A stretch of 25,197 nucleotides of DNA from a bacterium (GTDB taxonomy: Bacteria > Zhuqueibacterota > Zhuqueibacteria > Thermofontimicrobiales > Thermofontimicrobiaceae), in contig JALOPY010000001.1 in the NCBI GenBank assembly GCA_025453735.1, positions 1 through 25,197 of the forward strand, in the 5' to 3' direction. The notes below the pieces were generated by a model, which ran no database searches, had not been told where the DNA came from, and saw only the letters and a list, made by a program, of their open reading frames with translations. Shown here piece by piece: positions 208-18,746 of the stretch. The position numbers and the translations under genes are program-made. Within the stretch, counting starts at the first letter, position 1. Each line of letters starts with the position of its first letter.

Positions 208-223
208 CATAATAGGTGTAACC

Positions 224-2029: not shown

Positions 2030-2105
2030 TGAAATCATGGTATGCAATCTGAATCGATAACTATTCGATGGTGTGCGTACATCAGTTGAAGGAGAGATCG
2101 TTACA

Positions 2106-3758
2106 ATGAAAGTTATGACAGTATTAATCATTTTCATAATTATTTTGCATGTTGGGTTTTCATCTATAATGGTTTTTTCACAAGACGAGGAACCTGCGAG
2201 CCAGGTGAATGTTCCATCGTCCACAGATACGCTTGCAGCGGGACAATCAGGTCTGGATACTGGCAAAAGAGGTTTTTCAGTAGAAACGATGCTGGAGCTG
2301 CTAAAATTGTGTGAAGGAATCGGATATTTATTGATAATGGTTTTTGTTCTTGGAGTCTTATTTATTTTCCAGAAATGGTTTGTATTGCTCCGTGAGAAGC
2401 AAGATACCGAGAAGATACCCGTTGCTAAAATGAAAACGATGAGTTATGATGACATCCAAAAAATGTTCACCCATGTAAAAGACGCGAATCCTGATTCTGA
2501 TGATGACGACCAAAGTGAAAATAAAAATATCCCACTCCTGAAACGAATATTTCGAAGAAAGAAAGCATCAGCATTTCAATTGCTGTCAAAACTCTATAAA
2601 GTTTTTGAAAGTCAAAAATCAACCAGTTCATTCGTTGAAGAGACATCAAGCTATATTCAACATTTAAAAGATGGATTTAATCCATTTTTTACTCGTCTAT
2701 CGTTTTTCTCTGACACGGCTGGAGCTTTAGGCTTACTGGGAACAGTGTGGGGAATGTTTCTGGTGTTTTACAAGGGATCGCCGGATCCAGAAGATACGCT
2801 GCGCGGTATGGGAATCGCACTGGCAACGACGATTGTTGGATTAGTAATTAGTATTATCTTAAATTCATTTACAACAGTGATCAGCAATATCTTTGATAAA
2901 CACCTGGATTTTATCAAAAACATGTCCACCGCTTTTCAAGAGCGGTTGATGAAAGAAGAGGAAAAATACCCAATCAAAGCGCAACCTATCATTGTCGAAT
3001 CATCGGCAATTGCAGCGCGACCACAACAAATTCCCGAGATGTCGAAGCGAGAGGAAAAAGCCAAACACAAACCAATTCAGGAGGCATCTAAAGAACCAGC
3101 ACAACAACAAATCCTTAAAGGCAATCCTGCTGAGATCCGGATCAAAAAAGGCGATAACCAATCGGGCGAAGTGGGAACGAAGTTATCTGATCCGATTGTT
3201 GTTGAAGTGCTGGATTCAAAAGGCAATGCTCTGGAGAATGAGACAGTGGTTTTTAGCTCGGATGAAGGTTCTGGGGTTTTCTCAAATAATAGTCGCGTTC
3301 AAAAAATTCTTACCGATGAAGAAGGAATCGCCCAGACGAATTTTACGCTTGGTCGAACAAGCGGTGAAAAGACAATCCACGTTGCCGTTGAAGATAGCAA
3401 CAATCGTGGCATAAAACTGCTGGCAATCGCGAAACCAACTCCACCGACCAAGCTGATTGAATTGAAAGGTAATTATCAAACCGGGGAATTGGGAAAACGG
3501 CTGCCGTTGCCTTTTATCGTCGCGGTGCGGGATAAGTATGACAATCCGATTCAGCGCTATGAAATAAATTTTTCATTGAAAAAAGGAACCGGACGATTTC
3601 AGGATAGCCAGAATGCGCACTACGCCACCTATACGAATGAAGATGGCTTAGTCGAGGTTTATTTTATCATTGGCAACAATCGAGGTGGGCGAGAAATCGA
3701 AGCTGAAGCAAAAAAAGTGGAGCCATCAAAAATATTGTTTGAAGCATTTGCACAGTAA
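2106..3758 (+). CDS. exbB: MotA/TolQ/ExbB proton-channel protein with two C-terminal Big-1 (invasin/intimin-type) Ig-like domains
   Basis: Likely start ATG 2106 (AAGGAG 2089-2094). Signal peptide, TM1 GIGYLLIMVFVLGVLFIF, TM2 AGALGLLGTVWGM and TM3 GIALATTIVGLVISII are ExbB/TolQ hallmarks. Two repeats follow, GDNQSGEVG..L.DPIVVEVLDSKGN...TDEEG.A and GNYQTGELG..LP.PFIVAVRDKYDNP...TNEDG.V, typical of Big-1. Confidence 0.88.
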   Translation: MKVMTVLIIFIIILHVGFSSIMVFSQDEEPASQVNVPSSTDTLAAGQSGLDTGKRGFSVETMLELLKLCEGIGYLLIMVFVLGVLFIFQKWFVLLREKQDTEKIPVAKMKTMSYDDIQKMFTHVKDANPDSDDDDQSENKNIPLLKRIFRRKKASAFQLLSKLYKVFESQKSTSSFVEETSSYIQHLKDGFNPFFTRLSFFSDTAGALGLLGTVWGMFLVFYKGSPDPEDTLRGMGIALATTIVGLVISIILNSFTTVISNIFDKHLDFIKNMSTAFQERLMKEEEKYPIKAQPIIVESSAIAARPQQIPEMSKREEKAKHKPIQEASKEPAQQQILKGNPAEIRIKKGDNQSGEVGTKLSDPIVVEVLDSKGNALENETVVFSSDEGSGVFSNNSRVQKILTDEEGIAQTNFTLGRTSGEKTIHVAVEDSNNRGIKLLAIAKPTPPTKLIELKGNYQTGELGKRLPLPFIVAVRDKYDNPIQRYEINFSLKKGTGRFQDSQNAHYATYTNEDGLVEVYFIIGNNRGGREIEAEAKKVEPSKILFEAFAQ

Positions 3759-3877
3759 TTGATACAATATCAGACTTATTATCAAATTATTTGACAAAAT
3801 ATAAAAAGCGAATTCCTCGATCAGTTGTTTTTTTCAGGATTAAGGGATTCGCATTTTCTTAATTAAGGGATTGAACT

Positions 3878-4294
3878 ATGTCTAAAGGTGGCATTATTAT
3901 TCGATTGATCGATATCGTACTGCTGTTGCTGTTTGGCTTTTTGATCGTTAGCGAAGTCAATCGAAAGAGTCCTGTAAAACTTCCGCAAAGCGATGTAAAA
4001 GTGAAGCGGGAGATAACCGAAGAAGAACTGCTGATTATTGGAATCAGAGCGGATAAATCATTGTACCTGGAAGGCGAGAATCGAGTTGTCCCAAGTTTGA
4101 CAGAATTGTATAACCTGATCACAATACGCAATCAAAGTTTTGAATCCTTGAACAGAAAATTTCGCGTTCGTATTCGTTCCGAGTGGAATTTGCCAATAAA
4201 ATATACCATGCAAATTGCGAATTTCTGTCGCAAGAATAACATTCCTGTTGGGATGGACATCCATAATGTGAGTTATAAAAGTTCTGGAAGTTAG
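3878..4294 (+). CDS. exbD: ExbD/TolR-family biopolymer transport protein (paralogue 1)
   Basis: N-terminal TM LIDIVLLLLFGFLIV with the conserved Asp, VKLPQS after the TM, small periplasmic domain, directly downstream of exbB. Confidence 0.88.
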   Translation: MSKGGIIIRLIDIVLLLLFGFLIVSEVNRKSPVKLPQSDVKVKREITEEELLIIGIRADKSLYLEGENRVVPSLTELYNLITIRNQSFESLNRKFRVRIRSEWNLPIKYTMQIANFCRKNNIPVGMDIHNVSYKSSGS

Positions 4295-4306
4295 CTGAGA
4301 AAGATT

Positions 4307-4780
4307 ATGAAAAAAAGTGGTGGCAGCTTAATTATCCGTTTGATCGATGTTGTATTGCTCTTGTTATTGGGATTTTTGCTAATTAGCGACATCGTCCACA
4401 AAAGTCAAATCAAGCTTCCTGGACCAACCGGAACCAGCAGAAAGCAGGTGCAGGAACAAAAAATCCAAAACATTCATATCAATATTGTTGATGAAGATAC
4501 GACAATTGCAGGAATCGATCCTGAAAAAGAATATTCATTAATCAGATTAGCGCAGTTGCATTGTTACTACCTGGTTCAAGAGGATGACAAAATTTATCAC
4601 ATCCGCGACCTGGAAAAACTGGAGAAACATTTGATTTTGGCACAAGCTGCTTATGATTCAATTTCAGTGATTATTGACCCGCGTCCTAATTCCATCGTCC
4701 AGGGAACGATAAATCTAATTGATGTTTGTCGTAAATATGGATTTAAGCGGCGATTTCAATATAGCGAGGATTATGACTGA
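4307..4780 (+). CDS. exbD: ExbD/TolR-family biopolymer transport protein (paralogue 2)
   Basis: TM LIDVVLLLLLGFLLI with the conserved Asp, IKLP after the TM, C-terminal VIIDP...VQGTINLIDVCRKYG resembling the ExbD C-terminal fold. Confidence 0.83.
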   Translation: MKKSGGSLIIRLIDVVLLLLLGFLLISDIVHKSQIKLPGPTGTSRKQVQEQKIQNIHINIVDEDTTIAGIDPEKEYSLIRLAQLHCYYLVQEDDKIYHIRDLEKLEKHLILAQAAYDSISVIIDPRPNSIVQGTINLIDVCRKYGFKRRFQYSEDYD

Positions 4781-5796
4781 TGAAAGTTAAATTTGACACA
4801 TTAACCTGGGATCGGATTGATGAAGATCGTTGGATAACTGCATCGATAGCGACACTCATATTTTTGTTGCTGACGTTTTTGATTTTTAACTCAATCCAGA
4901 TCCCCCAAAATCCGAAAAAAGTCGCTATCACTGAAGAGATAGATTTTGTCAAACCAGAAGTCAAGAAAAAGGTCGTAGAAGAAAAAAAAATTGAGGAAAA
5001 AATCACTGAAGAAAAAATTACAGAAGAAGACCCAGAGATAATTCTGAATTTATTTATGAATACTCCAACCAACATTGAAAACCTGCCGCAAAATTTAAAA
5101 TTTGACACCGATTTTAAAATATTCGAAAAAGAGAATGCTTCAATTGAAGAGGCGCAAGCGATTACACAAATAGCAGACGGATTGCTGCTTGATAATACCG
5201 ATGTTGATCCAATAGATGTTCCCAAAGGCTTGAGCGCTGAATGGGCTGACAATAATGCTTCGACGACAATTATTACCCCGACAATTGGCAACAAAACCCT
5301 TAATGAAAATGTTGGAATCTCCACAACAATAAAAACTAAGACCCATCGGCTATCTAATGATTTTTCCGGCTTCAAAGGAAATATTGAATGGGAGAAATTA
5401 CTCGATCCCATTTTCGAGTGGATCCGAAAAAATGCCGGACCCATTGGAAGAGTTCCAACTTTCTTTATAACAGATAATGATCCAACTGCCAGAACGGCAA
5501 AAACGATTATTTCGATTGGTAATGTGCAGTATGAGTTGCTTTTAGCGAGCAAAGAAGAAAAACGCGAGCTTAAAATTTGCCTGGTCAATCTTGAAACTCA
5601 GGAATTTGTAAAACTCACGGATGTCGGTTTAACCCAGACCAGCAGCGTGTTTAATACTGGTCTGGTTCGACGACAGGATGATGGTGAAATTTTTAATTTT
5701 TCAAAAGGCACCTATCATAATGCAGATAATCCTAAGGCTCAGGAATTCATGAAAGTATTCTGGCAATGGGCAAAATCGGTGACAGGGAAAGGATAA
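4780..5796 (+). CDS. Single-pass membrane protein in the TonB/TolA position with a Lys/Glu-rich linker and an unrecognised periplasmic C-terminal domain
   Basis: ATG overlaps the exbD2 stop (TGATG 4778-4782). One N-terminal TM (WITASIATLIFLLLTFLIF), charged linker KPEVKKKVVEEKKIEEKITEEKITEEDPE, then a globular domain. The CDS is clear; the TonB-like role is inferred from synteny and architecture only. Confidence 0.55.
   Translation: MKVKFDTLTWDRIDEDRWITASIATLIFLLLTFLIFNSIQIPQNPKKVAITEEIDFVKPEVKKKVVEEKKIEEKITEEKITEEDPEIILNLFMNTPTNIENLPQNLKFDTDFKIFEKENASIEEAQAITQIADGLLLDNTDVDPIDVPKGLSAEWADNNASTTIITPTIGNKTLNENVGISTTIKTKTHRLSNDFSGFKGNIEWEKLLDPIFEWIRKNAGPIGRVPTFFITDNDPTARTAKTIISIGNVQYELLLASKEEKRELKICLVNLETQEFVKLTDVGLTQTSSVFNTGLVRRQDDGEIFNFSKGTYHNADNPKAQEFMKVFWQWAKSVTGKG
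4981..5025 (+). repeat. Three imperfect 15-nt in-frame tandem repeats (EKKIE/EKITE/EKITE) in the TonB-like linker
   Basis: gaaaaaaaaattgag / gaaaaaatcactgaa / gaaaaaattacagaa read directly from the sequence. Confidence 0.7.
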
Positions 5797-5891
5797 TTCT
5801 TTTGTTGACAGAAGAATTCTTTTAACTACCCCCCACATTTTTTTTTGATACAATAATTGCATTAATGCATAAAAACAATAGGAATTGGACA

Positions 5892-7262
5892 ATGATCTCT
5901 AAGAGATTTCTATTTTTTATTGTTCCGCTTTTAATCATCGCAACAACAGGTATTGCTTCAAATGGTGCGCTGCAAGTTGCCGGAGCAGCAAAATCTATCA
6001 CGGCTATTGACACCACGATGTGGAAATACCTTTCTGCTTCGGATCGCTCGCAATGGACAATTAGCAAAGAAGATTCTGAAAAGGCATATCGGACCTATTT
6101 TGTGAATGGCGCGAAAGCGTTTCGCGACTTCACCATCCTGTCTCAAAAAATCGAAACGAAACGTGCAACAATCCAGGATATTGCAGATGACTTGATTAAA
6201 TGCTTATCTCAAGCTCGGGGCGAGTTTGAAAAAGGAATAAAACTCGATCCATTTAATAATTATCTTCGAACTGCAATCACAGCAGTCTATTTGAACCTGG
6301 ACCCGTTGTTAGCTTATAAAAATGATAATCCCAATCGACTGCAAATTCTGTTTAATAAAATCTATCTTGAGACCGATCCCTTAAAAAAAGCAGATCTATA
6401 TAATAAAATTGGCAAGATTTATTTTAATTATAAAAGCTGGGAAAAAGCTCGCGATAATTTCCAGTTGGCAGTAGCAAATATATTTGAAGGAGAAGTAACT
6501 GACATCGATACGGCAAAATTATTTGATAATATTTATTATCGCGGATATTCGCATCTGAAATTGTATGAGGACGAACCAGCATTGACATCATTCGAGAACG
6601 CCAGCATGATCGCCCCAACAGAGGATCAAAAAAAAGATCTGGCACGATGGATTGATTATATTAATTGGGATAAAGGAAACATACATGCCTCAGAACAGTA
6701 TCAAAATGCAAAAGCCTTTTATGCTGAAAAGAAATATGATGATGCTGAACGCGCCTATCTGGATCTTATCCAGATCGTTCAAACTGAGCATGCCAGAGAC
6801 GAAATAGCCTATCGCTTATCGATGGTTCAGTTTAATAATTTAGATAAAAAGCCAGAAGCTATCCAGCGATTATGGAATGTCGTAAAAACATTTTCACTGG
6901 ATGAAACGACAGGTGTACCAAACGAACCAACTCAAGCTGAATACTGGGAATCATATTGCAAAATGTGTCTTAATCTGGCAGCCAATAGTTTTTATGAAGA
7001 TAAAAAAACAGCATTTATTTATTTCCAAAAAGCCTCTCAAATCGAAAGCTCGATCCGCGGCAATGCATTTTTGAATCTTGCCATCATGTCTCTTAACAAC
7101 CCGGAGCTATGCTTGAATTTCTGTGATCGTTCATTTTCCTATATTGACAGATTGAATGAAAGCGATAAAAAAATGCTTTATAATACGTATTACAGAGCGT
7201 ATCAGCAAAAAGGTAATTTTGATGAAGCGATGAAGTGGTTTAAAAAATTCAATGAGATTTAA
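5892..7262 (+). CDS. Exported TPR-repeat protein, WDxGN family paralogue 1 (Sec/SPI, no lipobox)
   Basis: Likely start ATG 5892. Hydrophobic signal MISKRFLFFIVPLLIIATTGIA, TPR-like helices (LYNKIGKIYFNYKSWEKARDNFQLA) and the family motif INWDKGNIHASE. Confidence 0.8.
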   Translation: MISKRFLFFIVPLLIIATTGIASNGALQVAGAAKSITAIDTTMWKYLSASDRSQWTISKEDSEKAYRTYFVNGAKAFRDFTILSQKIETKRATIQDIADDLIKCLSQARGEFEKGIKLDPFNNYLRTAITAVYLNLDPLLAYKNDNPNRLQILFNKIYLETDPLKKADLYNKIGKIYFNYKSWEKARDNFQLAVANIFEGEVTDIDTAKLFDNIYYRGYSHLKLYEDEPALTSFENASMIAPTEDQKKDLARWIDYINWDKGNIHASEQYQNAKAFYAEKKYDDAERAYLDLIQIVQTEHARDEIAYRLSMVQFNNLDKKPEAIQRLWNVVKTFSLDETTGVPNEPTQAEYWESYCKMCLNLAANSFYEDKKTAFIYFQKASQIESSIRGNAFLNLAIMSLNNPELCLNFCDRSFSYIDRLNESDKKMLYNTYYRAYQQKGNFDEAMKWFKKFNEI

Positions 7263-8805
7263 TTATATCGGAAAGCTCAGTTCGATGGATAATTGCAAAT
7301 ATTTTGTTTTATTTATATTGCTGATGATTGCTGGCTGCGCGGTGCAACAGCCTGTTATTCGGGAAGCGACAACTATAATAGCGAAAGTACCTCCCGGTGT
7401 TGATACTCTGACAGCAGTTATCGCTGACTCAATTTTCTCCCTGGTGGATGTCGCCGAAGAGGATGGACAAGAATCGAAACGATTATACGATATCGCGGAA
7501 CAAAGAAGCAGCCTGGCAGATTCTCTTTGGGAGGCAAGTGTCAGTGGATTCGAAACTGGACAGGATTCTGCTGCAGCGCTGCAGCAGATTTTGCACGCTG
7601 AAGAATTGTTTCAGGCCGACAAAGAATGGCTGAAACAAACCAGAAAAATGATGAAGAAGCAGGGACGTTTAACTCCGGCAGTTCTATCTCACATAAGTGA
7701 TCACTTATCTGTTCAAGCTGAAGGGTATTATGAAAGTGCGATCAAGAAAAATCGTTTTGATATCCGCTATCGACAAAAATATAGCAAATTTTTGAAAGAT
7801 TTATCTGTCAAATATAAAGATCAAAGCTATCTCTATCGGGCTGCCGATGAGCTGGAACGGGTCGTGTTCGTCGTCAAAGGCAATCATCAGCTTTTTTATG
7901 AATTGGGAGAAATTTATGTGCTGTTGGGGGATTGGAACAACGCGCATAAGAATTATGAATTAGCACAAACTGCATTGAAAAAAACAGCAATTTTTTCTGT
8001 TGCGGATCCAAAAACTTATTTTTTGAAGCTCAGTGAAGTTCCAGTCGATACAATGAGAATGGTTAATTATCTTAATAAGCAAGCCTGGTGCAAGACGAAG
8101 TTGTACGAAGCGCTGCCCGCTCTCTCGTTATACCGGGAAGCTTCAGGAATAACTCCAGATCCAGCCTGGAAGGACTATTTTGAATCACGGATAACATGGA
8201 TTTTGTGGGATGATGGAAATATTCGTGCGTCTGAGATAAAAGACCGAGCAGATTCCTTAAGCTCATTCTATCAAAAATATTCAGAATCAAAAACGGTATT
8301 TTTAGAACTGCTTCCAGTACTCTGGACGAAACGGACGAAAGATGAGATCAATTGGAAAATCGCTCAATTAGACTTCAGTTATTTAGACCATAAGTTTGAC
8401 GGCGTCGGGAGAATGTACCTGGTCATCAAACACACTGCCATGGATTCTATTACTGGTGCGCCAATCGACTCGACCTATAAACGGTATTTTGACAGCTATG
8501 GCACGATGTGTTTCAATTTGGGTTCTGAATATTATTATAAAGATAGGTTGATTGCTTATATGTATTTTATTCAGGCGGCAGAGACCAACTTTGATAAACG
8601 TGCCAAGGCGTTTTTACAGTTAGCTGATATATCCCAATTTGATCCATACGAAACGATCAACCTCTGCACGAAAACAATAGAAGTCGTCGATGACTTGAGC
8701 TTAGATGAGCGACAGGTTTTATATCGATTGCTTCATAGTTCCTACCGAAAATTGGGAGATTTTGAGAAAGCAAAAGAATGGTACGATCGCTGGAAAGCTT
8801 TATGA
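7252..8805 (+). CDS. TPR-repeat lipoprotein, WDxGN family paralogue 2
   Basis: Lipobox IAG-C (Cys codon 7336-7338); alternative start ATG 7285. TPR LFYELGEIYVLLGDWNNAHKNYELA and motif ILWDDGNIRASE. Confidence 0.82.
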   Translation: MRFNYIGKLSSMDNCKYFVLFILLMIAGCAVQQPVIREATTIIAKVPPGVDTLTAVIADSIFSLVDVAEEDGQESKRLYDIAEQRSSLADSLWEASVSGFETGQDSAAALQQILHAEELFQADKEWLKQTRKMMKKQGRLTPAVLSHISDHLSVQAEGYYESAIKKNRFDIRYRQKYSKFLKDLSVKYKDQSYLYRAADELERVVFVVKGNHQLFYELGEIYVLLGDWNNAHKNYELAQTALKKTAIFSVADPKTYFLKLSEVPVDTMRMVNYLNKQAWCKTKLYEALPALSLYREASGITPDPAWKDYFESRITWILWDDGNIRASEIKDRADSLSSFYQKYSESKTVFLELLPVLWTKRTKDEINWKIAQLDFSYLDHKFDGVGRMYLVIKHTAMDSITGAPIDSTYKRYFDSYGTMCFNLGSEYYYKDRLIAYMYFIQAAETNFDKRAKAFLQLADISQFDPYETINLCTKTIEVVDDLSLDERQVLYRLLHSSYRKLGDFEKAKEWYDRWKAL

Positions 8806-8841
8806 TTTCGGAACATGAAATTTGTATGAATTGAGGAGAAA

Positions 8842-10473
8842 ATGAGGATTCTGATAAAGACGATATTTTTATTGTACCTGGTGTTAACGATCATTGGCTG
8901 TTCGAACAATAAAAGCATGATTGATCAATCAATTATTAATTTTGAGCAAAAATCTTTTCAAATTCCCGCCGGAATTGATAGTGTGGTTGCCTATAACGCA
9001 AGAATAAAAGCTGACAAGCTTTTTGTCAGTGCCGATCGCGAACAACTATCAGATAGCCTGGTAACGTATTCTCGAGATTTTCTAAAAATTACTGAAGACT
9101 TGTACAGTGTTCTATTAGCAAAAAAAGAAAAGTTGGATAGTTACCGGCTTTCAGAAAAATATCTGAATTTAAAACCAGAAGAGCTTAAATCATTATCGCT
9201 CGAGGATAGCAAGAAACGAGAGCGAATTTTAGAAAAAGTATTTGACGATTCGATTACGATAACAATAGTGAACAGTCTCCTGGATTATTTTTTAAACCAT
9301 AGCAATGAGCTGCTCCAGCATGCGAATGAATTAAATCCTTTCAATTTGTCGGGATTACAGCTAGTGGCGATTAGCAGCGCAGATAGAGGTCAAATATTTG
9401 ATGATACGCTTGCTTATCGTCGCTCAATTGAGTACTTAAATAAATTTCTTACGCATGATCGAGGACAGTCGATAATTTATCGAAATATTGGTGAAAGCTA
9501 TTTTACATTGAAGGATTGGCAAAAAGCCTATAAATTCTTGAAGAAAGCAAAGGAAACTTTTGTTATCACATCGTTTTTTGAAGAGAAAAAAACGGAGCTG
9601 GCAGAAAAATATCAAAAAATGAATTTGCCGCCCAATGTCGATCCAGCAAAATATTTTGAATATCTCTATTGGAAAGGAAGAGCAGAAATAAAAGTCTATC
9701 AAGCTGATTCAGCATTGGCAACACTGAAACAGGCGCTTGCGCTTGCTCCCACGAAGAATCAGGAAGTTGACGTTATCAAGTTGATTGATGAATACATATT
9801 GTGGGACGGCGGAAATATTTATGCTGCTGAGCAACGAGATATTATCATTGATTCGCTCAATGCAAAGAATTTTGTTTGGGCAAAAAATGCATATTTGCAA
9901 TTGTTGCCAAAAGTAAAAACGAAAAAGGCGAAGGATAACATTACCTGGATGTTAGCTCGTGTTGAATATTACAGCCTGGATCAAATTGAAGAAGCCGGCG
10001 ATCGATTATATAATTTGGTAATTAATGCGGATACGAGCAAAATTAAATCGTCGATTTATAAAGCTCCGGAAGATTCATTATATAAGCGGTATTTCAGAGA
10101 TTGTGGAGAAATATTGTTCCGGCTGGGCAGCACGTTTCGCGATCAGGGATTGCAGGAAAAAGCAAGGATTTATTTCTCGAAAGACACGACCTTCGAATGG
10201 TCTGGCAGGGGGAAAGCTTTTCTGCCCCTGGCCCTGCTGGTTGATATTCCTGAAAATATTGATCCGGTAGAACGATTGAAAGCAAGAAATGAAAAAGCGA
10301 TAAAAATTTTGAATCGGGCAAAAATGTTTATCAAGGATTTTTCAGAGCAGGAAATTGATCAACTCTATCGCCCCTTGATAATGATTTATCAACAAACGTA
10401 TGACAGGGCAAATGCACAAAGAAGTTTCACTGAATGGAATGAGATCAAAGAGAGGATGAAACGAGGTTCATAA
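8842..10473 (+). CDS. TPR-repeat lipoprotein, WDxGN family paralogue 3
   Basis: SD GAGGAG just upstream, lipobox IIG-C, TPR IYRNIGESYFTLKDWQKAYKFLKKA and motif ILWDGGNIYAAE. Confidence 0.82.
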   Translation: MRILIKTIFLLYLVLTIIGCSNNKSMIDQSIINFEQKSFQIPAGIDSVVAYNARIKADKLFVSADREQLSDSLVTYSRDFLKITEDLYSVLLAKKEKLDSYRLSEKYLNLKPEELKSLSLEDSKKRERILEKVFDDSITITIVNSLLDYFLNHSNELLQHANELNPFNLSGLQLVAISSADRGQIFDDTLAYRRSIEYLNKFLTHDRGQSIIYRNIGESYFTLKDWQKAYKFLKKAKETFVITSFFEEKKTELAEKYQKMNLPPNVDPAKYFEYLYWKGRAEIKVYQADSALATLKQALALAPTKNQEVDVIKLIDEYILWDGGNIYAAEQRDIIIDSLNAKNFVWAKNAYLQLLPKVKTKKAKDNITWMLARVEYYSLDQIEEAGDRLYNLVINADTSKIKSSIYKAPEDSLYKRYFRDCGEILFRLGSTFRDQGLQEKARIYFSKDTTFEWSGRGKAFLPLALLVDIPENIDPVERLKARNEKAIKILNRAKMFIKDFSEQEIDQLYRPLIMIYQQTYDRANAQRSFTEWNEIKERMKRGS

Positions 10474-10566
10474 TTTGGAAAAATGAATTCAGTGGTCTAA
10501 GATCAAGACATAATTGCTATTCATTACATGTACATTGACGGTTATTAATGAGAAGGAAAAATTACT

Positions 10567-11259
10567 ATGAAACGAAGAAAATATATATTTGGCATGGTCG
10601 CGATTTCAATGTTTATCATGATAACGGCGAATACAGTTTTTGGACAACAAAATTTTATTTGGGATAAAGAGCTAGTCCAAAAAGTAACGATTACCGATCA
10701 AAGTGTCATTAAAAAATTAGTCTTTGAATTGTTTATTCCGGAGTCGGATATTACATTTATTGAAATTTTCGATGTCGATAAAAATGGGGCGGCGGAAGGG
10801 GATCTGCTGAAAGTTCATCCATCCCGAAATGTCTATCCGCTATATATGTTGTCACAAGATACTCGAGAAATATTGAGAAAAATACCGCATCCACCCAATT
10901 TAGAGGATGTCGGATTAACGATCAATATTAAGAATCCAGATGATGCAAAGGAGCGAATTTTGTTTATCCTGGCTTCAACGATAAAAGAATTGTATAGCCA
11001 GGATAAGCCATTGAAATTATATTTTGAACAGAATGAGGATGGCGTGTATAAATTCGATTTCTTTGGATTTAGCGAGGCGGATTTGAAAGATAAGGATATC
11101 GATCTTGGCAAAAATAGAAGTCAGCAAATCCACGATCTCTTGAAAGCGTTGTACAAAGAATTTAATGAGGAATTTGTAAGCTGGCAACCGACAGTGATTC
11201 ATGTTATAAAAACTGAGCGAGATACCCTGGTTGTGCCTGAAAAAATTTCAAAAAAATAA
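10567..11259 (+). CDS. Exported protein of unknown function with a DxDxNG putative Ca-binding loop
   Basis: AAGGA upstream, signal peptide ending TVFG-Q, DVDKNG loop; no other family recognised. Confidence 0.7.
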   Translation: MKRRKYIFGMVAISMFIMITANTVFGQQNFIWDKELVQKVTITDQSVIKKLVFELFIPESDITFIEIFDVDKNGAAEGDLLKVHPSRNVYPLYMLSQDTREILRKIPHPPNLEDVGLTINIKNPDDAKERILFILASTIKELYSQDKPLKLYFEQNEDGVYKFDFFGFSEADLKDKDIDLGKNRSQQIHDLLKALYKEFNEEFVSWQPTVIHVIKTERDTLVVPEKISKK

Positions 11260-11512
11260 TCTGCAGAAGCATGATTTTTTTTATGAAATAACAAATTCGT
11301 ATTTAGCTTTATTTGCCAGCAAAGGAAAGTAATTTTCAAAATCTCATTCCGGTTTTCTGATAATCTTATAAACTGATATTATTAAAGTTACAAATTTGAG
11401 AGGTTTGCCCGTAACGCAGGCCAATCGTTGCTAAAATGTCATGATCCCTGGTTATTTAGCAGGCAAGAAAATTAATCAGATAAACCAATTCAGAAATCCC
11501 TAAAAAAAAAGC

Positions 11513-11541
11513 TTGCATTTCTAAAGATATTTTATTAAACT
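11513..11541 (+). promoter_or_regulatory. sigma70-type promoter for the second TPR triplet
   Basis: TTGCAT (11513-11518), 17-nt spacer, TAAACT (11536-11541), preceded by an A9 UP-like tract (11502-11510), in the longest intergenic gap of the window. Confidence 0.62.
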
Positions 11542-11705
11542 TGTACTGCAATAAAAAAATAATGAAATTTCCCCCTGATCAAAAAAACCCAAAACCTGTG
11601 TTCTTTGATTTCGCATTAGTGTTTGAACCAAGTTATTTCTGCAAAATCTAATTTACTGATCAGCAACTATCAACATTTTTGGATATTGTAACTGGGGACT
11701 GCATC

Positions 11706-13190
11706 ATGGATAAGATCAGAAAAATTATGACGCCCTTCCTTTTCTTTAATTTCACTTTAATTGGGTGTATATTAAATAATATAGGACAATCAAAAGGCGC
11801 TTTATTATCAATGAATATGATTTCTTTGGATGGGAAGTTATCACCCAAAAGTGATCGCACTGCAATAAGTACCAACAAAGAAATCGAAGATACGATTCGA
11901 GAGATTAACCATTATTCTTTAAGTGATTCCTTATGGAAAATGTGGCGCGCGATTGAGGATTCTCAATTCGTTGTTGCAAAGGTCGATTCCATTCGATCGA
12001 TGAAAACATTTATCAAAGGGGTGAATCTGGCGAAAGAAGCATTTGATCTGATTAATGAATTAAAGCAACAAAATCTCGATACATTGTCTGTTAAAAAAAT
12101 AAAATTTACAGCCATTCTGTTGTTTGAAAAAGCTCGTGCGCATTTTGAAGAAACATTTAAACTGAATCCTTTCGATATTAGAACCCAAAATTATTTGATC
12201 TGGGTCTTTCAAAATCTGGCTGAGCTATACGATCATTGCGATAATAAACTTCGTGCGATAAATATGTTGGAATATCTAACGTATATTTTGAATGATGATC
12301 CGAAGCTTTACTATACGCTGGGACAGAAATATTTCAGTATTGGCAAATGGGAGCAATCCCTTGTAAATGTGCGTGCATCAATTGATCTCATTCTGGATGA
12401 TGATTGGAACAAGATTGATACGAATCAACTGTTTTGGCATTACTATCTGCGCGCCAGGGCAGAAATGCAACTGGAATTGATTCCGGAGGCTTTGTTATCG
12501 CTTAACTATGCGAAGCTTATTGCCCCATCTGAAAACGAGGCAGGAGAAGTCCAAAAAAAGATCGAATGGATTAATTGGGATGATGGCAACCTGAATGCGT
12601 CGCGAAAATCAGATACACTGGAAACCAGGCTGAATCAGGGCGCAAAAGATTACTCGATGATCAAACAAGAATATGTCGAATTACTCAGCCAGGTCAGAAC
12701 TGCAAAAGCAAAACAAGATATCAATTGGCGCATTGCTCAGCTCGAATTCAATTTTTTAAATGAAAAAGAGATTGCCATCGACCGGATGATGAAAATTGTA
12801 AATGCTACTGAGTTGGACTCTACGAGAAGCGCTGCCGATGTGAAATCTCAAAAATACATTGAAGATTACTGCTTAATGTCTTATGTTTTCGGATTGGATT
12901 ATCTGAGAAATCAGCATCTTAAAAAAGCTTTCGTTTACTTTTACCAATCCATCTCATTCTCGTGGAGCCGAATTGGAAAAGGCTATCTTCAATTGGCAAA
13001 ACTTGTTGCATTGGATAACAATGCAGTATTAAAATTTGCTGAGCAGGCTTTGATCTATCAAGATCAATTGACTGACGATGAACGAAATAGTTTATATCAA
13101 TTGTTTTATCAATCATACAAAAAATTGGGCAGATTTGATGATGCAGCAATCTGGCTGCAAAAATCAGTTAGTTTCTCGATGGGTGAGTGA
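11706..13190 (+). CDS. TPR-repeat (lipo)protein, WDxGN family paralogue 4
   Basis: Likely start ATG 11706 (GGGGA 11694-11698). Possible lipobox LIG-C, KLNPFDIR, TPR LYYTLGQKYFSIGKWEQS and motif INWDDGNLNASR. Confidence 0.8.
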   Translation: MDKIRKIMTPFLFFNFTLIGCILNNIGQSKGALLSMNMISLDGKLSPKSDRTAISTNKEIEDTIREINHYSLSDSLWKMWRAIEDSQFVVAKVDSIRSMKTFIKGVNLAKEAFDLINELKQQNLDTLSVKKIKFTAILLFEKARAHFEETFKLNPFDIRTQNYLIWVFQNLAELYDHCDNKLRAINMLEYLTYILNDDPKLYYTLGQKYFSIGKWEQSLVNVRASIDLILDDDWNKIDTNQLFWHYYLRARAEMQLELIPEALLSLNYAKLIAPSENEAGEVQKKIEWINWDDGNLNASRKSDTLETRLNQGAKDYSMIKQEYVELLSQVRTAKAKQDINWRIAQLEFNFLNEKEIAIDRMMKIVNATELDSTRSAADVKSQKYIEDYCLMSYVFGLDYLRNQHLKKAFVYFYQSISFSWSRIGKGYLQLAKLVALDNNAVLKFAEQALIYQDQLTDDERNSLYQLFYQSYKKLGRFDDAAIWLQKSVSFSMGE

Positions 13191-14689
13191 TGGGAATTAA
13201 ATTCTATCCATTTTTAATTATTTGTTTATTTCTATCTGTAATTTCTTGTTCGCTAAATAAATCATTAAGAAAGGATCAGCTTTCCAAGCTACCTTCTCCT
13301 AAAGATGATTATTATCCGGGAGTTGATAGTACGGTGGTCAAAAATGCCAATGAAATTGCTGATCGAATGTTTGTTGACTATGACAGGCGAAACCAGTCTA
13401 GCGCCTACCACAACAGCGCGAAAACATCATTTCAAATCGCCGATTCGATCTGGAATTGTCATAAACACAAAACCTATCCTGATTCGATTCTTTTGAAATT
13501 ATTTTTAAGCTGGCAACGAGGGCGCGACAACGATTCAAAGCAAAATGATAATTCAATTCCTGGCAGAATGATTCGACCCAATGAATCATCATTGCATATC
13601 TTGCATCAAGCGGAGAAAGACGCCAATCAAGCCAAGCTCATCAATCCATTCGACCTCGATATTCGATCCTTATTAATTAATATTTATTCACGAATGGGTG
13701 AGATCAGTGGCAATTTAAATTTTTATACGAAAGCCATTGAGGAACTGAAAAATTTATTACAGGTAGATAAAAGCAATCCTTATATATATGAACGATTAGC
13801 TGAATGCTATTTTGCATTGCAAGATTGGGAGAATTGCTATCAATGTTTTGATAAAGCCGAGCAAGTCCTGCTGATCGTTGCAAAATTCAAAAACAGCAAA
13901 AATAATCCTTCCAGCGCTTCGGTTGACACGGCTCGCTGGGTTTATTATCTGCAAGGAAAAGGCGAAGCGCAAGCCAAACTCTACGATTCAGCTCTTGCAA
14001 TAACCTACCTGACCAGAGCAAAGCAGATGACACATTCGGCGTCGAATGCACAGCAGTTGCAGAATTATTTAAACTGGATCGAATGGGATGGAGGCAATTT
14101 GAAAGCTTCTGAGCTTCGGGACGAGGCTCAGCATGTTGAACAAGCTGGCGAATACAAAAAAGCGCACAGCAAATATTTACAGCTATTAGGAATCCTTACA
14201 ACCCAACAAGCAAAGAATGAAATTGATTGGAAAGTTGCTTCGATTGATTTCAATCATTTGAGTGAAAAATTGGAAGCGATCGAAAGGATGTTCCAGGTCA
14301 TTCAAAGTATTCAAAAGTCTGGCAACTCGCATGAATTGAATGATGTCTATTTGCAAGATTATGCAGCGATGTGTTATTCTATCGGGGTTGACTATTATAA
14401 TAAGCATAACTATCGTTTCGCTTACATCTATATTAATCAGGCAGCACAATTTGAATGGGAACATCGCGGTGATTGTTATCTGCAATTAGCCATGCTGTCA
14501 GAAGTGAATCCACACGAGAGCATTCAGTTTTGTCAGAAAGCATTGGCGTATTCGAAACAATTATCCGATGAAAGTCAAAACAAGATTCAAAAAATGTTGA
14601 CCGTTTCATTCATTCGATTGGGGGAGTTCGATCTGGCGCAAAATTATTATCAGAAATTTTTAAATTCCAAATCATCACCAAACAATTAG
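13190..14689 (+). CDS. TPR-repeat lipoprotein, WDxGN family paralogue 5
   Basis: ATG 13190 overlaps the upstream TGA (the track starts at GTG 13187). Lipobox VIS-C, LINPFDLD, TPR IYERLAECYFALQDWENCY and motif IEWDGGNLKASE. Confidence 0.82.
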   Translation: MGIKFYPFLIICLFLSVISCSLNKSLRKDQLSKLPSPKDDYYPGVDSTVVKNANEIADRMFVDYDRRNQSSAYHNSAKTSFQIADSIWNCHKHKTYPDSILLKLFLSWQRGRDNDSKQNDNSIPGRMIRPNESSLHILHQAEKDANQAKLINPFDLDIRSLLINIYSRMGEISGNLNFYTKAIEELKNLLQVDKSNPYIYERLAECYFALQDWENCYQCFDKAEQVLLIVAKFKNSKNNPSSASVDTARWVYYLQGKGEAQAKLYDSALAITYLTRAKQMTHSASNAQQLQNYLNWIEWDGGNLKASELRDEAQHVEQAGEYKKAHSKYLQLLGILTTQQAKNEIDWKVASIDFNHLSEKLEAIERMFQVIQSIQKSGNSHELNDVYLQDYAAMCYSIGVDYYNKHNYRFAYIYINQAAQFEWEHRGDCYLQLAMLSEVNPHESIQFCQKALAYSKQLSDESQNKIQKMLTVSFIRLGEFDLAQNYYQKFLNSKSSPNN

Positions 14690-14696
14690 TTCAGCT

Positions 14697-16172
14697 ATGA
14701 AAACTCGGCAGCATAATCATATCATTTCTCTAATCATTCTCCTCTATATTATTTTGATTTCATGCAACCGTTCGAGCTATCGATTGCCCGTCTTTCGAAC
14801 GCATAACGATTCTCCCGTCGGAGTGGATAGCCTGATTATTGCAGATTCAGATTCAGTCATAAAATTTCTATTTGTTGATTTCGCGAGCGAGCGCAAAGCA
14901 AGTGACCTTGCCCGAGAAGCACAGACTGAATTAAGTTTAGCAGATTCTGTCTGGCAATTAATAAAAACGGATAGCGACAGTACGAAACGATTCATAATTT
15001 CGACTACTGATACTATCGCTAAATCACAAGTCGAATATAATATTGCAGTAAAAAAAATTATTAGTGGATTAGAGATTGCTGAGCGCCGGTTTCAACAATC
15101 GATTAAATTGAATCCCTTTCTCCTGAGCTCAAAAGATGGCCTTGCGCAAACGTATATTTTGTGGGCACAAATCGAAAAACCCCTGTTTTATTTTGAGAAA
15201 GCCGCAGCAGTACTTGCCAAATTAGTGCAAAATGAAAAGAGCGAACATATTCTATGCTACCGATTGGGAGAATGTTATTTTCAACTGGGAAAATGGGAAC
15301 AGGCTTTTTCAAATTATCATCAAGCTGAAAAGATTTTTATTGGTACAAAAGCATTCTCGAACGGTGGTCTGTTTGAAAATAAACCTGAAGATTATCATAA
15401 AAATGATCTGTTATTCAATTACTTATACTCTCAAGCTGTGTGCCTGGCACGAATGTATAAATCGCCGGAAGCATTGATAATTATCAACCAGGCAAGAGAT
15501 ATGGCGCCAAATGATTCGTTAAGAAATATTGCAGAACGATTTGAAGACTGGATCAATTGGGATAAAGGAAATATCTATACGGCAGAACAAAAGAATCAAA
15601 TATTAAAATTAATCAATGAAAAAAATTACCAGGATGCATCCATAAAATTTGATTCCCTGAAAAATCAATTATCTGACCCATTGGCAATCGTGGAAATCGA
15701 ATGGCGCATTGCCGGGCTTGAGTTCAGATATTTAAATAAAAAAGAACAGGCGTGTGAACGTTTATTGACTATCATCGAGAAAAGCCATAATTTTTCCAAT
15801 CATCCCAATCACTCAATTATCGATTTTAGCACCTACTTAAATGATTGCGGAGTCATGCATTATCATTTAGGCATGGAATTCATCGAAAAAACAGATTACA
15901 AACAAGCGCAGAAATATTTGGAGCAAGGCGCAAAAATTGATTGGTATGGCAATTACAAGTGCCAATTAGAATTGGCAAAACTGAATCGTCATGATCCGCA
16001 AATCTCATTATCGCTGATCGAAAAAGTCTTAACAACAGAATCTGCTTTGACAGAAGTTGAAAAATTAACCGCTCTTGAAATTAAATTAGGAGCTTTGAAA
16101 AAATTAGGTCCCCAGCATCGAATTGAAGCGAAGCACGTTTATAATCAGATCCGTGAGCTCCAGAACAAATAG
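14697..16172 (+). CDS. TPR-repeat lipoprotein, WDxGN family paralogue 6
   Basis: Lipobox LIS-C, KLNPFLL, TPR LCYRLGECYFQLGKWEQAFSNYHQA and motif INWDKGNIYTAE. Confidence 0.82.
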   Translation: MKTRQHNHIISLIILLYIILISCNRSSYRLPVFRTHNDSPVGVDSLIIADSDSVIKFLFVDFASERKASDLAREAQTELSLADSVWQLIKTDSDSTKRFIISTTDTIAKSQVEYNIAVKKIISGLEIAERRFQQSIKLNPFLLSSKDGLAQTYILWAQIEKPLFYFEKAAAVLAKLVQNEKSEHILCYRLGECYFQLGKWEQAFSNYHQAEKIFIGTKAFSNGGLFENKPEDYHKNDLLFNYLYSQAVCLARMYKSPEALIIINQARDMAPNDSLRNIAERFEDWINWDKGNIYTAEQKNQILKLINEKNYQDASIKFDSLKNQLSDPLAIVEIEWRIAGLEFRYLNKKEQACERLLTIIEKSHNFSNHPNHSIIDFSTYLNDCGVMHYHLGMEFIEKTDYKQAQKYLEQGAKIDWYGNYKCQLELAKLNRHDPQISLSLIEKVLTTESALTEVEKLTALEIKLGALKKLGPQHRIEAKHVYNQIRELQNK

Positions 16173-16238: not shown

Positions 16239-16332
16239 GATAATAGTTGAGAAATAATTGGAGATAAGTTAATTATAATCCATTTAATTAACCATGCTTC
16301 TAATCCCTTTAAAATTAAGTGAGGTGATTCTG

Positions 16333-17355
16333 ATGACAAAGCATATTAAAGCCATATTGATGATTGTTGGGCTGATGATCGTCCTCAGCTTTATGCTGAC
16401 AGGATGTTACACCCAATTGTCACGTCCTCGAATCGATACTGAGGATGAATATCAAAATAATCCAGAATATGAAGGGGAGGAGTATTATCAAGATCAAGAA
16501 GGCCAAGATTTATCGGAACAATCAGAAGGAAATACTTATATTTATAATTATTATCCGTACGTCGATCCGTATTTTGATTCCTGGTACTACTATCCTTATT
16601 CATGGCGCTATTATAATATGAGCTATCTGGGACCCTATCCGGATTATTGGTGGGATCCTTATGGGCGAGGGTGGATTCCGGGTTGGTATCTAGGATTTTC
16701 TTACTATGATACCTGGTGGGGAGGTTACCCCCGGCATGGAAATTCCTATTATGGAGATTATTCAAATCCATCGCAACGAACTTACGCAAAACGCCCCTTC
16801 GGAAGACGGTCAATTGACGCTGCTGATCGAGAACAACGAGCGATTGACACACAATCCGGGCTTGCCAAACCGCAGTCTCCAACGCGCGTGGACAGGCCGA
16901 CTTCAACCATAGCTTCCCCTGATCTCAGGAAAAAGCCAGGCGCTGACAATGCGAAGCGGGTTCGGACGAATCCAAATATAAAAAAACCAGGAAACGTGGA
17001 TGACGCTAGTCGCCAAACTAAGGTCAAACCTCGTGTTCCCGTGCGGAGGACTGAACCACAAAGTGATTCGCCTCGTAGCTCGAAATCATATTCAAAGCCC
17101 AAAATGATCGAAACCGCTCCAGCTCAAAAGAAGGACACGAATACGAATAGAAGCTATAAACCAACACAACGATCAGATAGCAAAAGCAGCACGCCGTCTC
17201 GTTCCAACAATGCGCAGGTGAGCAAACCATCGACTCGTTCCAGTACACCGAGTAGCAGCGCAACACCCAGGAGCTCCAGTTCTTCAACGAGCTCTAGCTC
17301 AAAAGGAACCAGCTCTTCAAAAAGCTCTGGATCATCAAAAACGAATAAAAAGTAA
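16333..17355 (+). CDS. Low-complexity lipoprotein: acidic N-terminal segment, Tyr/Trp/Pro/Gly-rich core, Ser/Arg/Lys/Pro-rich disordered tail
   Basis: Likely start ATG 16333 (GAGGTG 16321-16326) and lipobox LTG-C. Composition read directly from the translation. Confidence 0.78.
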   Translation: MTKHIKAILMIVGLMIVLSFMLTGCYTQLSRPRIDTEDEYQNNPEYEGEEYYQDQEGQDLSEQSEGNTYIYNYYPYVDPYFDSWYYYPYSWRYYNMSYLGPYPDYWWDPYGRGWIPGWYLGFSYYDTWWGGYPRHGNSYYGDYSNPSQRTYAKRPFGRRSIDAADREQRAIDTQSGLAKPQSPTRVDRPTSTIASPDLRKKPGADNAKRVRTNPNIKKPGNVDDASRQTKVKPRVPVRRTEPQSDSPRSSKSYSKPKMIETAPAQKKDTNTNRSYKPTQRSDSKSSTPSRSNNAQVSKPSTRSSTPSSSATPRSSSSSTSSSSKGTSSSKSSGSSKTNKK

Positions 17356-17370
17356 GGCGGAGAGATAGCA

Positions 17371-18660
17371 ATGAGAAAAAATATATTTATAATTTTGATA
17401 GTGGGATTTCTGTTCCTGAGTCCGAATGTTTATTCACAAAGTGAAGCCTTTTTCCTGGGCTATGGTTCAGGAGTCGGCGGCAGAGCATTATCAATGGGGA
17501 GCGCATACCTGGCAATCGCAGATGATTATTCAGCTACACTGTGGAATCCCGCGGGCTTGACCCAGTTGCGACGTATGGAATTATTTGCTTCCCTGTCGCA
17601 CTCACAATTTATGAACGAAGCAACGTTCCAGGGATCATCAAATACGGATAAAACATCGAAGACTAATCTCAACTCAGTAGGATTCGCTTTTCCAATTCCA
17701 ACTTACCGGGGAAGCCTTGTATTTGCCGTCGGTTATAACCGAGTCAGAAATTTTGATTCCGGTTTTTCATTCTCACAGTTTGTGAGTGATCCTGGTGTGC
17801 AACAAGATTATACCGAGATTGAAGAAGGTGGGCTGAATAACTGGGTTTTTTCCGGAGCCATGGAAATGACGCCAAATTTGTCTATTGGAGGCTCGCTGAA
17901 CTTGTGGCGTGGAAAAGACGACTATCATTTGAACTTATTCGATCAAGATGTTCAGAATTTATTTTACTATAAAGATTTTAGCTATGACCAGCAGCTTGTC
18001 ACCGACTATAGCGGAGTCAATTTTAAATTTGGCGCTCTCTATAAATTCTTAAAAGTTTTCCGGTTTGCCGCCACGATCGCCACGCCAGTCACGCTAAACG
18101 CTGATGAAAAATGGCGTGAAACGACTCAGCAAATAGAGGATGCGGATAGCCCGTATGAAGATTATGAAGAAACTGAAAGCAGCTCATGGAAATATAAAAT
18201 AAGGGCACCCTTTGTTTTTTCTGCCGGCAGCGCTGTCACATTGCTGCCCAATATCGTGCTATCGGCAGATGTGGAATATACGGACTGGTCACAAACCAGG
18301 TATTTGTCAGAACCACCGGTCGGTGATGAATTTAAGCAGAACCTCAATTTCAAGCAGGATTTTGATCAAACGATCACCTATCGCTTTGGCGGCGAATTTA
18401 CAGTTCCATTGATAAATACCCAATTGCGAGCCGGAATGATTCGACAACCCTCACCATTAGTAAATGCTTCTTCAAAAGCAGATCGAAATTATCTCACGCT
18501 CGGCGGTGGGATTCTTTTGGATAAACAAGTCAAAATAGATTTTGCCTGGGTGCGTGGCTGGTGGGAAAAAGAGGGGTCATACTTTTCCGACGATTTACCC
18601 TCAGTCAATGAAAAAATTAACCTGGATAAATTTTTCGCCACGATGTCGATTCGGTTCTAA
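17371..18660 (+). CDS. OmpP1/FadL/TodX-family outer-membrane beta-barrel
   Basis: Signal peptide ending VYS-Q, N-terminal GRALSMGSAYLAIADDYSATLWNPAGL (FadL/PorV-type hatch motif), amphipathic strands and terminal Phe (MSIRF, beta-signal). Confidence 0.88.
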   Translation: MRKNIFIILIVGFLFLSPNVYSQSEAFFLGYGSGVGGRALSMGSAYLAIADDYSATLWNPAGLTQLRRMELFASLSHSQFMNEATFQGSSNTDKTSKTNLNSVGFAFPIPTYRGSLVFAVGYNRVRNFDSGFSFSQFVSDPGVQQDYTEIEEGGLNNWVFSGAMEMTPNLSIGGSLNLWRGKDDYHLNLFDQDVQNLFYYKDFSYDQQLVTDYSGVNFKFGALYKFLKVFRFAATIATPVTLNADEKWRETTQQIEDADSPYEDYEETESSSWKYKIRAPFVFSAGSAVTLLPNIVLSADVEYTDWSQTRYLSEPPVGDEFKQNLNFKQDFDQTITYRFGGEFTVPLINTQLRAGMIRQPSPLVNASSKADRNYLTLGGGILLDKQVKIDFAWVRGWWEKEGSYFSDDLPSVNEKINLDKFFATMSIRF

Positions 18661-18685
18661 CTGAAGCAATCAAAAATTAACACAC

Positions 18686-18729
18686 AAAATCTCTGTCATG
18701 TTTTCTTATTCATGGCAGAGATTTTTTTT
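18686..18729 (+). terminator. Intrinsic terminator after the FadL-like gene
   Basis: AAAATCTCTGTCATG (18686-18700), 10-nt loop, CATGGCAGAGATTTT (18711-18725): a 15-bp stem with one G-U pair, running into T8 (18722-18729). Confidence 0.8.
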
Positions 18730-18746
18730 AGTTCACATTTTAGAGT

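Follow-up and report, generated by a model that had tools for sequence, protein, structure and literature searches.

Six WDxGN-motif TPR paralogues beside an ExbBD-type motor module: a candidate outer-membrane-anchored scaffold in a Zhuqueibacterota bacterium

When a bacterium carries six diverged copies of one tetratricopeptide repeat (TPR) protein beside an envelope motor, do the copies build one machine, serve two, or act one by one? The question is raised by the locus analysed here, a window of 25,197 nt (positions 1 to 25,197, forward strand, of contig JALOPY010000001.1, GenBank assembly GCA_025453735.1) from a bacterium of the Thermofontimicrobiaceae (Zhuqueibacterota; candidate division KSB1), whose genome is a metagenome-assembled genome (MAG) of 731 contigs with 86% completeness. 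Six TPR genes, called T1 to T6 below, stand in the window as two triplets on either side of a gene for a small secreted protein, mid230, and they follow genes for a PorP-like barrel, an ExbB-like protein, two ExbD proteins and a protein in the position of TonB (Table 1). Judged from their sequences and those of their relatives, T1-T6 are a real, old and selectively maintained set of paralogues. On balance we consider it probable that the family to which they belong serves an ExbBD-type envelope machine as its periplasmic scaffold, anchored to the outer membrane and with subunits joined head to tail by an N-terminal segment of one and a C-terminal groove of the next.

In Tol-Pal, Agl-Glt and the type IX secretion system, TPR scaffolds are known to connect proton motors of the inner membrane with the outer membrane. 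The WDxGN-TPR family described here marks a motor-plus-PorP module that appears undescribed, and searches of the literature found no paper on the operon or on the WDxGN motif. What is new is the definition of the TPR family, the positional orthology of its members, the duplication and the separability of the triplets, a second triplet of apparently independent origin, and the docking role predicted for a PxGVDS segment. The paralogue history would make a clear case of a single scaffold subunit turning into an ordered hetero-oligomer, from one copy to a triplet and to a doubled triplet.

Six paralogues of one TPR family

The original prediction, made from the letters of the window, held that the six open reading frames align block by block. 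In a full-length MAFFT alignment they do so over their whole length, with 22-27% identity to T1 and 23 invariant columns that include I-x-W-D-x-G-N, and the tryptophan codons it listed (6666, 8206, 9802, 12576, 14084 and 15558) are all exact. No long DNA identity had been seen, and indeed none above 53 nt exists between paralogues; the longest common stretches are 42-53 nt at 62-77% identity and lie over conserved motifs. A profile built from the six proteins recovers T1-T6 at E values of 1e-175 to 1e-201, a likeness well outside what chance would give, together with a seventh copy in the same genome.

The N-termini divide the six proteins further. By sequence inspection with the lipoprotein pattern [LVI][ASTVI][GAS]C, a lipobox-like L/I/V-x-G/S-C is found in T2-T6, and T1 has a signal peptide without the cysteine, in agreement with the five lipoproteins and one soluble form first proposed; a qualification is that the T4 lipobox, canonical here, is not kept across the orthologues of T4, where plain signal peptides are common. 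The segment P-x-G-(V/I)-D-(S/T) is found near the N-terminus of T2, T3, T5 and T6, four members as had been claimed, and is absent from T1 and T4. Each triplet is thus made of one member without PxGVDS (T1 or T4) and two lipoproteins that bear it. The genes are closely joined, with an 11-nt overlap between T1 and T2, a 4-nt overlap between T4 and T5 and 7 nt between T5 and T6, and all frames are intact. For T1 an alternative start at 5892, the one taken in the original prediction, is the second ATG; the start of T4 is likely the ATG at 11706.

TPR repeat matches and an all-alpha solenoid of helical hairpins place the proteins in the TPR superfamily. The Pfam model TPR_2 scores above its gathering cut-off of 27 bits in T1 (38.3), T3 (32.3), T5 (29.3) and T6 (29.3), and below it in T2 and T4. 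Pfam and NCBIfam scans of T1-T6 gave generic TPR matches and no curated family beyond them: the CpoB/YbgF model TIGR02795 reached 23.1 bits (E = 9e-5) in T1 against a cut-off of 90.1 and left T2-T6 unmatched, and the NlpI, MamA, LcrH/SycD and PrsT equivalogs gave 16-26 bits against cut-offs of 105-312. The AlphaFold2 (AF2) model of T5, for which 23 family members were used, is a solenoid made up entirely of helices, 22 in all, with a predicted local distance difference test score (pLDDT) of 85.6. Its Foldseek matches are TPR superhelices at E = 4e-8, and fold searches with it in PDB, AFDB clusters and ESM Atlas found only generic TPR solenoids, with TM-scores of at most 0.45. Among 1.84 billion cluster representatives, a profile search returned 215 proteins at E<=1e-30, of which the full-length ones have 450-730 aa and most carry WDxGN. 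Because the curated and structural matches are generic only and the profile search returned these 215 proteins, we take the WDxGN-TPR family, on the evidence of sequence, to be small, distinct and uncurated. A match to an already characterised family, which would speak against the original prediction, appeared in none of Pfam, NCBIfam, PDB, AFDB clusters and ESM Atlas. We define the family by a length of ~450-600 aa, a full-length match to a broad family profile and a W-D-x-G-N turn near residue 300; T1-T6 all fit this definition, with broad-profile E values of 1e-145 to 1e-171.

The motif that names the family is strongly conserved. Among 63 relatives in the window's class, the tryptophan and the aspartate are present in 63, the asparagine in 62 and the glycine in 55, and members from other classes of the phylum have W-A-x-G-N/D instead. 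The T5 model shows WDxGN as a turn that connects helix 285-299 to helix 305-319, where the N- and C-terminal TPR halves are joined. The motif had been proposed as a probable binding site, to be mapped on models; it proves to be a real, nearly invariant turn, but not a part of the T1-T2 interface predicted below, outside which it lies in both proteins (residues 268-272 of T1 and 319-323 of T2). By analogy, the turn could be either a structural elbow or a site for a third partner. A sediment-metagenome contig (depth 5.4, against 14.7 for the main contig) lacks 154 nt of T3, window 9722-9877, across the WDGGN codons; the length is not a multiple of three, and the contig may come from another organism or be an assembly artefact.

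A maximum-likelihood tree of 63 family members contains six well-supported clades, one per gene position, and a clade of single-copy forms. The T1-T3 clades span three taxonomic families and the T4-T6 clades two, so that orthologues cluster by position across several genera and families, as foreseen for copies that are old, retained and non-redundant. When the tree is rooted with Rhodothermales, single-copy forms are basal and T1-T6 form one clade, with a Shimodaira-Hasegawa-like approximate likelihood ratio (SH-aLRT) support of 94 (97 in a second tree). Within it, T1 is sister to T4 (support 96), T2 to T5 (91) and, weakly and in the best tree, T3 to T6 (68). Because sisterhood pairs the two triplets member by member, it points to a duplication of the whole triplet, and the simplest history suggested by the trees leads, within this order of KSB1, from one gene to a triplet and then to its duplication.

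Clade-specific features follow the same division. All eight T1 orthologues are without lipobox and without PxGVDS; T4 orthologues are likewise without PxGVDS and mostly have plain signal peptides. In T2, T3, T5, T6 and the single-copy forms, the lipobox is followed 17-22 residues on by PxG(V/I/L)D(S/T), a motif that is also present in Rhodothermales. The T2 orthologues of family f3 (L033:9947-12145 and L034:6986-9205) and several metagenomic relatives (P0029, P0032, P0038 and P0041) are 720-739 aa long and have an N-terminal extension of ~220 aa without the lipobox of other T2 proteins.

In a survey of the phylum, the WDxGN-TPR family was present in 53 of 133 genomes of at least 85% completeness, in a pattern that follows taxonomic families. 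It was found in 14 of 17 genomes of f6 (mostly as one copy), in all of f8 (8/8) and f10 (14/14, with 2-4 copies) and in 7 of 9 of f1 (3-7 copies); among the 133 genomes it was not found in f4, f5, f7, f9, f13-f16 and others. Two further lineages, f17 and f19 (L069:1-5933, L070:5484-11401 and L071:477-5718), have an array of a TonB-position gene, two lipoprotein genes, a gene for a soluble member and mid230. The lipoproteins are ~620-650 aa long and contain G(V/I)DS, and the soluble member, of ~440-457 aa, is without it. A quick tree, in which some branches are long, puts the members of these arrays outside the T1-T6 clade; the combination of two docking-competent lipoproteins with one soluble member therefore seems to have arisen twice.

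Could the copies simply be redundant or decaying duplicates with no separate function? Nothing but the fact of duplication speaks for this, and we regard it as negligibly probable. The frames are intact, the six orthologue clades have a long shared history, and the lipobox and docking motif are conserved clade by clade. Strain-level indels, too, fall only outside the T coding sequences. A 7.9-kb sediment-metagenome contig from another study is about 95% identical to the window and colinear with it over 4868-12784, with four indels that are all intergenic; indels in other contigs are intergenic, or are in-frame insertions of 21 nt (at 16950) and 6 nt (at 17137) in the gene for the 353-aa lipoprotein downstream of T6 (u353). 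Neutral redundancy is excluded by the positional clades, the conserved clade features and the placement of these indels.

Gene order behind the motor

Homologues of the window genes were mapped in 38 loci of related KSB1 genomes and in 9 Rhodothermales loci, some of them on contigs that end within the locus. The order PorP, ExbB, ExbD, ExbD, TonB-position gene, T and mid230, in which T is a single gene or T1-T2-T3, recurs wherever the contig shows the neighbourhood. In the mapped loci, every T copy outside a T4-T6 block is directly 3' of motor genes: T1-T3 stand directly behind the ExbB-ExbD-ExbD-TonB-position genes, and the same is true of every solo copy examined and of the Rhodothermales members. 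In a divergent subgroup from Rhodothermales (MAG), the members are 3' of ExbB-ExbD-ExbD and a gene for a ~300-aa protein. Copy number and order, which the original prediction had proposed as a check, are structured rather than free, with 1, 2, 3, 3+1 or 3+3+1 copies.

A second motor module in the same genome as the window has a single T gene and is split over two contig ends. C98 (L007:1-2531) carries the TonB-position gene and the N-terminal part of T, and C545 (L008:1-1865) carries the C-terminal part of T and a mid230-like gene. In related genomes with this second module, 3.5-6 kb are inserted between ExbB and ExbD. On two metagenome contigs (one of them L043:1-4000), conjugation-type genes are found a few kb 5' of a Rhodothermales-like module, a TraG/TrwB coupling protein on one contig and a relaxase with a T2SSE-type ATPase on the other; on these two contigs the module may lie on or beside a mobile element.

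T1-T6 form two separable operon blocks. In five genomes (G018, G005, G012, G019 and G020), T4-T6 and the genes for u353, the FadL-like barrel, the GWxTD protein and RmlD make up a locus of their own away from any motor. In G001 (97% complete), T1-T3 are present and T4-T6 absent, and the FadL block is directly 3' of the motor operon; in G005 (96% complete) and G012 (94%), T4-T6 and a single-T module were found and T1-T3 were not. Since the two triplets can stand at separate loci, and some genomes have one and not the other, T1-T6 are unlikely to be an obligate hexamer. The linkage to the motor that had been proposed for all six therefore stands for T1-T3 and the solo copies, which are always behind a motor, but not for T4-T6, which accompany the lipoprotein/FadL-like/GWxTD block.

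Since T4-T6 are often away from the motor, they may serve another machine. There would then be two machines, with T1-T3 belonging to the ExbBD/PorP motor and T4-T6 being the scaffold of a device made of the FadL-like barrel, the 353-aa lipoprotein and the GWxTD protein. We hold this to be possible but doubtful. The motor-free loci in five genomes and the presence of one triplet without the other in G001, G005 and G012 are in its favour, as is the AT-rich gap of ~420 nt (window 11260-11678, GC content about 0.33) that parts mid230 from T4; most single-base strain indels of the region fall in this gap, the probable site of the promoter for T4-T6. On the other hand, the T4-T6 genomes that were checked also hold a motor module elsewhere, and action in trans is therefore possible; in G001 the FadL block stands directly behind the motor operon; and a division into two machines is compatible with a scaffold function for the family as a whole.

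A predicted contact within the triplet

If the WDxGN-TPR proteins form a scaffold, neighbouring subunits are expected to touch. Complex prediction was run for a single pair, T2 residues 30-517 with T1 residues 32-465, with unpaired alignments that we built ourselves, in three runs and with three controls. The pair passed: every run gave an interface score (ipSAE) of 0.74, whereas the best control had 0.00. In calibration, 58 of 80 solved complexes and 2 of 110 mismatched pairs attained the pass mark, counts that apply only roughly to a prediction from our own alignments. At least 97% of contacts are common to the runs, the pLDDT of the partner is 88, and the N-terminal segment of T2 is placed with errors below 1 Å. 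On the T2 side, the interface consists of this segment (residues 47-69) and of loops 169, 207-210 and 241-257 of the N-terminal TPRs. On the T1 side it consists of residues 330-337, 368-392, 408-416 and 443-464, among them the family-invariant Y386.

This model suggests how a triplet could be held together. The PxGVDS motif and an amphipathic helix, just behind the lipid anchor, would dock along with the N-terminal TPRs in the groove formed by the C-terminal TPRs of a neighbouring paralogue. T1, and probably T4, would be an acceptor-only cap with a groove and no segment, kept under the membrane by the neighbouring lipoprotein; having neither lipid anchor nor docking segment, T1 would depend on T2 for its place under the outer membrane and would form the end of the chain. 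We take the family to be a fixed part of a Ton/Tol-like envelope module, with members that are mostly predicted to be lipid-anchored to the outer membrane. By analogy with known systems, the motor would pull the TonB-position protein, the TonB-position protein would contact the T scaffold, and the scaffold would contact the PorP-like barrel and its surface cargo. Of the hetero-oligomer that the original prediction had put forward, a version at the level of one triplet gains support from the T2-T1 score, and an obligate hexamer does not, as the blocks are separable. The contact between T2 residues 47-69 and the C-terminal groove of T1 is specific and testable, and could be studied in a heterologous host; no KSB1 bacterium has been cultured.

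Several points weigh against a motor-coupled, head-to-tail scaffold. In T1, conservation is no higher at the predicted interface than elsewhere (mean column conservation 0.44 against 0.45), and the T2-T1 result is the confidence of a model and not a measurement. In the calibration, near relatives of a true partner can pass as well, and the predicted docking could therefore mirror a cis contact or another pairing. No TonB domain is recognisable in the TonB-position protein by Pfam, NCBIfam or an ESM Atlas feature search; the step of force transduction is therefore proposed by analogy only. T4-T6 are not linked to a motor in about half of the genomes and travel with the FadL-like barrel block. 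Finally, the rooted tree and the phylum-wide tree come from quick searches and have some long branches.

The passing of such relatives also speaks for an intramolecular latch. The T proteins would in that case be monomeric outer-membrane TPR adaptors like CpoB or BamD, each with its PxGVDS helix on its own groove; the T2-T1 pairing would be an echo of paralogy, and the six would have six non-T partners. Single-copy systems do hold motif and groove in one chain, and the N-terminal segment of the T5 monomer is modelled at moderate confidence (pLDDT about 67-69). However, T1 and T4 keep the groove, whereas the motif is lost in all their orthologues, and an acceptor in trans therefore fits better than a latch in cis. 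Moreover, the groove of T2 itself was available in the complex model, yet in all three runs the segment was put, with the same small error, on T1, and triplets of two motif-bearing lipoproteins and a motif-less soluble member seem to have arisen twice. We consider the latch unlikely.

Alternatively, each paralogue could work alone with the same motor as a client-specific adaptor, bound to its own surface protein, barrel or substrate and forming no T-T complex; the original prediction had offered cargo-specific adaptors as one option. TPR domains are generic peptide-binding modules, the sequences diverge strongly outside the shared blocks (at the identities given above), and the genome has at least two motor modules, all of which would suit such adaptors. 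Nevertheless, copy number does not vary freely, with the same ordered triplets recurring across genera and families, the triplet genes are tightly joined, and the T2-T1 prediction passed its controls. Because the order and composition of the triplets are fixed, the adaptor reading is disfavoured, and we rate it as decidedly improbable.

The scaffold reading can also be taken further than we are ready to take it. The T proteins might polymerise head to tail into a lipid-anchored rail or ring under the outer membrane, which the ExbBD-type motor would use to move or tension a surface adhesin held by PorP, with fixed heterotrimers having evolved at least twice from a homo-oligomer. This extension is rather unlikely. 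If true, its interest would lie in a third kind of adhesin-driving envelope machine in bacteria of the Fibrobacterota-Chlorobiota-Bacteroidota (FCB) group, beside gliding by GldLM and the type IX secretion system (T9SS), and analogous to Agl-Glt.

Related systems and neighbouring genes

The closest analogue of the triplets appears to be the GltC/GltD/GltE trio of TPR proteins in the Agl-Glt gliding (focal-adhesion) machinery of Myxococcus xanthus. There, the soluble periplasmic GltC and the lipoproteins GltD and GltE are modelled as a periplasmic connector from the TonB-like GltG and GltJ to outer-membrane barrels that hold the surface adhesin, and the motor is made of one TolQ-like and two TolR-like proteins (PMC11761067). 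The comparison is one of architecture: the window has one ExbB, two ExbD, a TonB-position protein and an adhesin-holding type of barrel, and each of its triplets joins one motif-less member to two lipoprotein TPR proteins. The differences are considerable. The Glt TPR proteins are unequal, GltD extending beyond residue 1100 and GltE to about residue 455 (PMC11761067), and GltC, GltD and GltE are not known as one paralogous family, whereas the T proteins are monophyletic, 450-600 aa long and marked by WDxGN and PxGVDS. The barrel is PorP/SprF-like here instead of GltA/B/H, and the organism belongs to the FCB group and not to the Myxococcota.

Two other systems are similar in part. CpoB (YbgF) is a periplasmic TPR protein whose gene closes a motor operon of the TolQ-TolR-TolA type, and it is reported as an outer-membrane lipoprotein in most non-proteobacteria (PMC12204202). 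It shares with the T proteins a periplasmic TPR protein tied to a motor operon, but the T proteins are about twice as long, and their module has a PorP-like barrel in place of TolB or Pal. In Fibrobacter succinogenes, FSU_2396-FSU_2403 encode OmpA, two TPR-domain proteins, ExbB, ExbD, ExbD and TonB; the proteins are commoner in the cell envelope on cellulose and are found in an outer-membrane complex (PMC6851124). By gene arrangement this is again a case of secreted TPR proteins beside an ExbB-ExbD-ExbD-TonB operon in a bacterium of the FCB group, although with OmpA instead of a PorP-like barrel and with two TPR copies against the three or six seen here.

SprE/PorW, an outer-membrane TPR lipoprotein of type IX secretion, links the outer-membrane translocon to a motor-driven periplasmic assembly in systems of the same superphylum that also use PorP/SprF-type barrels. 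It is a much larger protein than the T proteins and is present in one copy, and its motor is GldLM/PorLM instead of ExbBD. No match in Pfam, NCBIfam or fold searches linked the T family to it.

The features of the window are collected in Table 1. Among the neighbouring genes, mid230 recurs throughout the phylum: in almost all motor modules it comes 3' of the TPR gene or genes. An invariant D-x4-G-(N/D)-G-x4-D loop in the protein resembles a calcium-binding turn; the AF2 model of mid230 has a pLDDT of 70, and a PDB fold search with it gave no match at E<=0.001. Pfam and NCBIfam gave no match for the TonB-position protein, mid230 or u353, and ESM Atlas feature searches with the first two gave no usable family.

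Table 1 Features of the window (positions in nt; aa, amino acids; TM, transmembrane).
Feature	Position	Strand	Description
PorP/SprF-like barrel with CHU_C-like tail	32-2029	+	First gene of the upstream motor module (32-5796)
ExbB-like protein fused to Big_1 domains	2073-3758	+	
ExbD	3878-4294	+	
ExbD (second)	4307-4780	+	
TonB-position protein	4780-5796	+	338 aa; one TM helix, K/E-rich linker, C-terminal domain without Pfam match
T1	5865-7262	+	465 aa; soluble periplasmic; signal peptide without Cys; no PxGVDS segment
T1 predicted receptor surface	6852-7256	+	C-terminal TPRs, residues 330-464
T2	7252-8805	+	517-aa lipoprotein; lipobox IAGC, Cys29
T2 predicted docking segment	7390-7458	+	Residues 47-69, PPGVDT...ADSIFSLVDVAE, just behind the lipid anchor; predicted in the T1 groove
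T3	8842-10473	+	543-aa lipoprotein; lipobox IIGC, Cys20; PAGIDS at nt 8965-8982
mid230	10567-11259	+	230-aa secreted protein, between the two triplets
T4	11679-13190	+	503 aa; LIGC lipobox; no PxGVDS; first gene of the second triplet
T5	13187-14689	+	500-aa lipoprotein; lipobox VISC, Cys21; PGVDS at nt 13316-13330
T6	14697-16172	+	491-aa lipoprotein; lipobox LISC, Cys23; PVGVDS at nt 14814-14831
WDxGN codons	6666-6680 (T1), 8206-8220, 9802-9816, 12576-12590, 14084-14098, 15558-15572	+	One per protein
353-aa lipoprotein (u353)	16294-17355	+	First gene of the block (16294-20855) accompanying T4-T6
FadL/Toluene_X-like barrel	17371-18660	+	
TPR+GWxTD protein	18747-20855	+	

Rfam found nothing in the window, and a scan for sigma-70 promoters and terminators gave counts near the shuffled expectation, promoters of the FCB group being outside the coverage of the model. 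One sequencing run labelled RNA-Seq is probably DNA. In the 353-aa lipoprotein, the N-terminal part is rich in Tyr, Trp and Pro and is followed by a long basic, Ser-rich tail.

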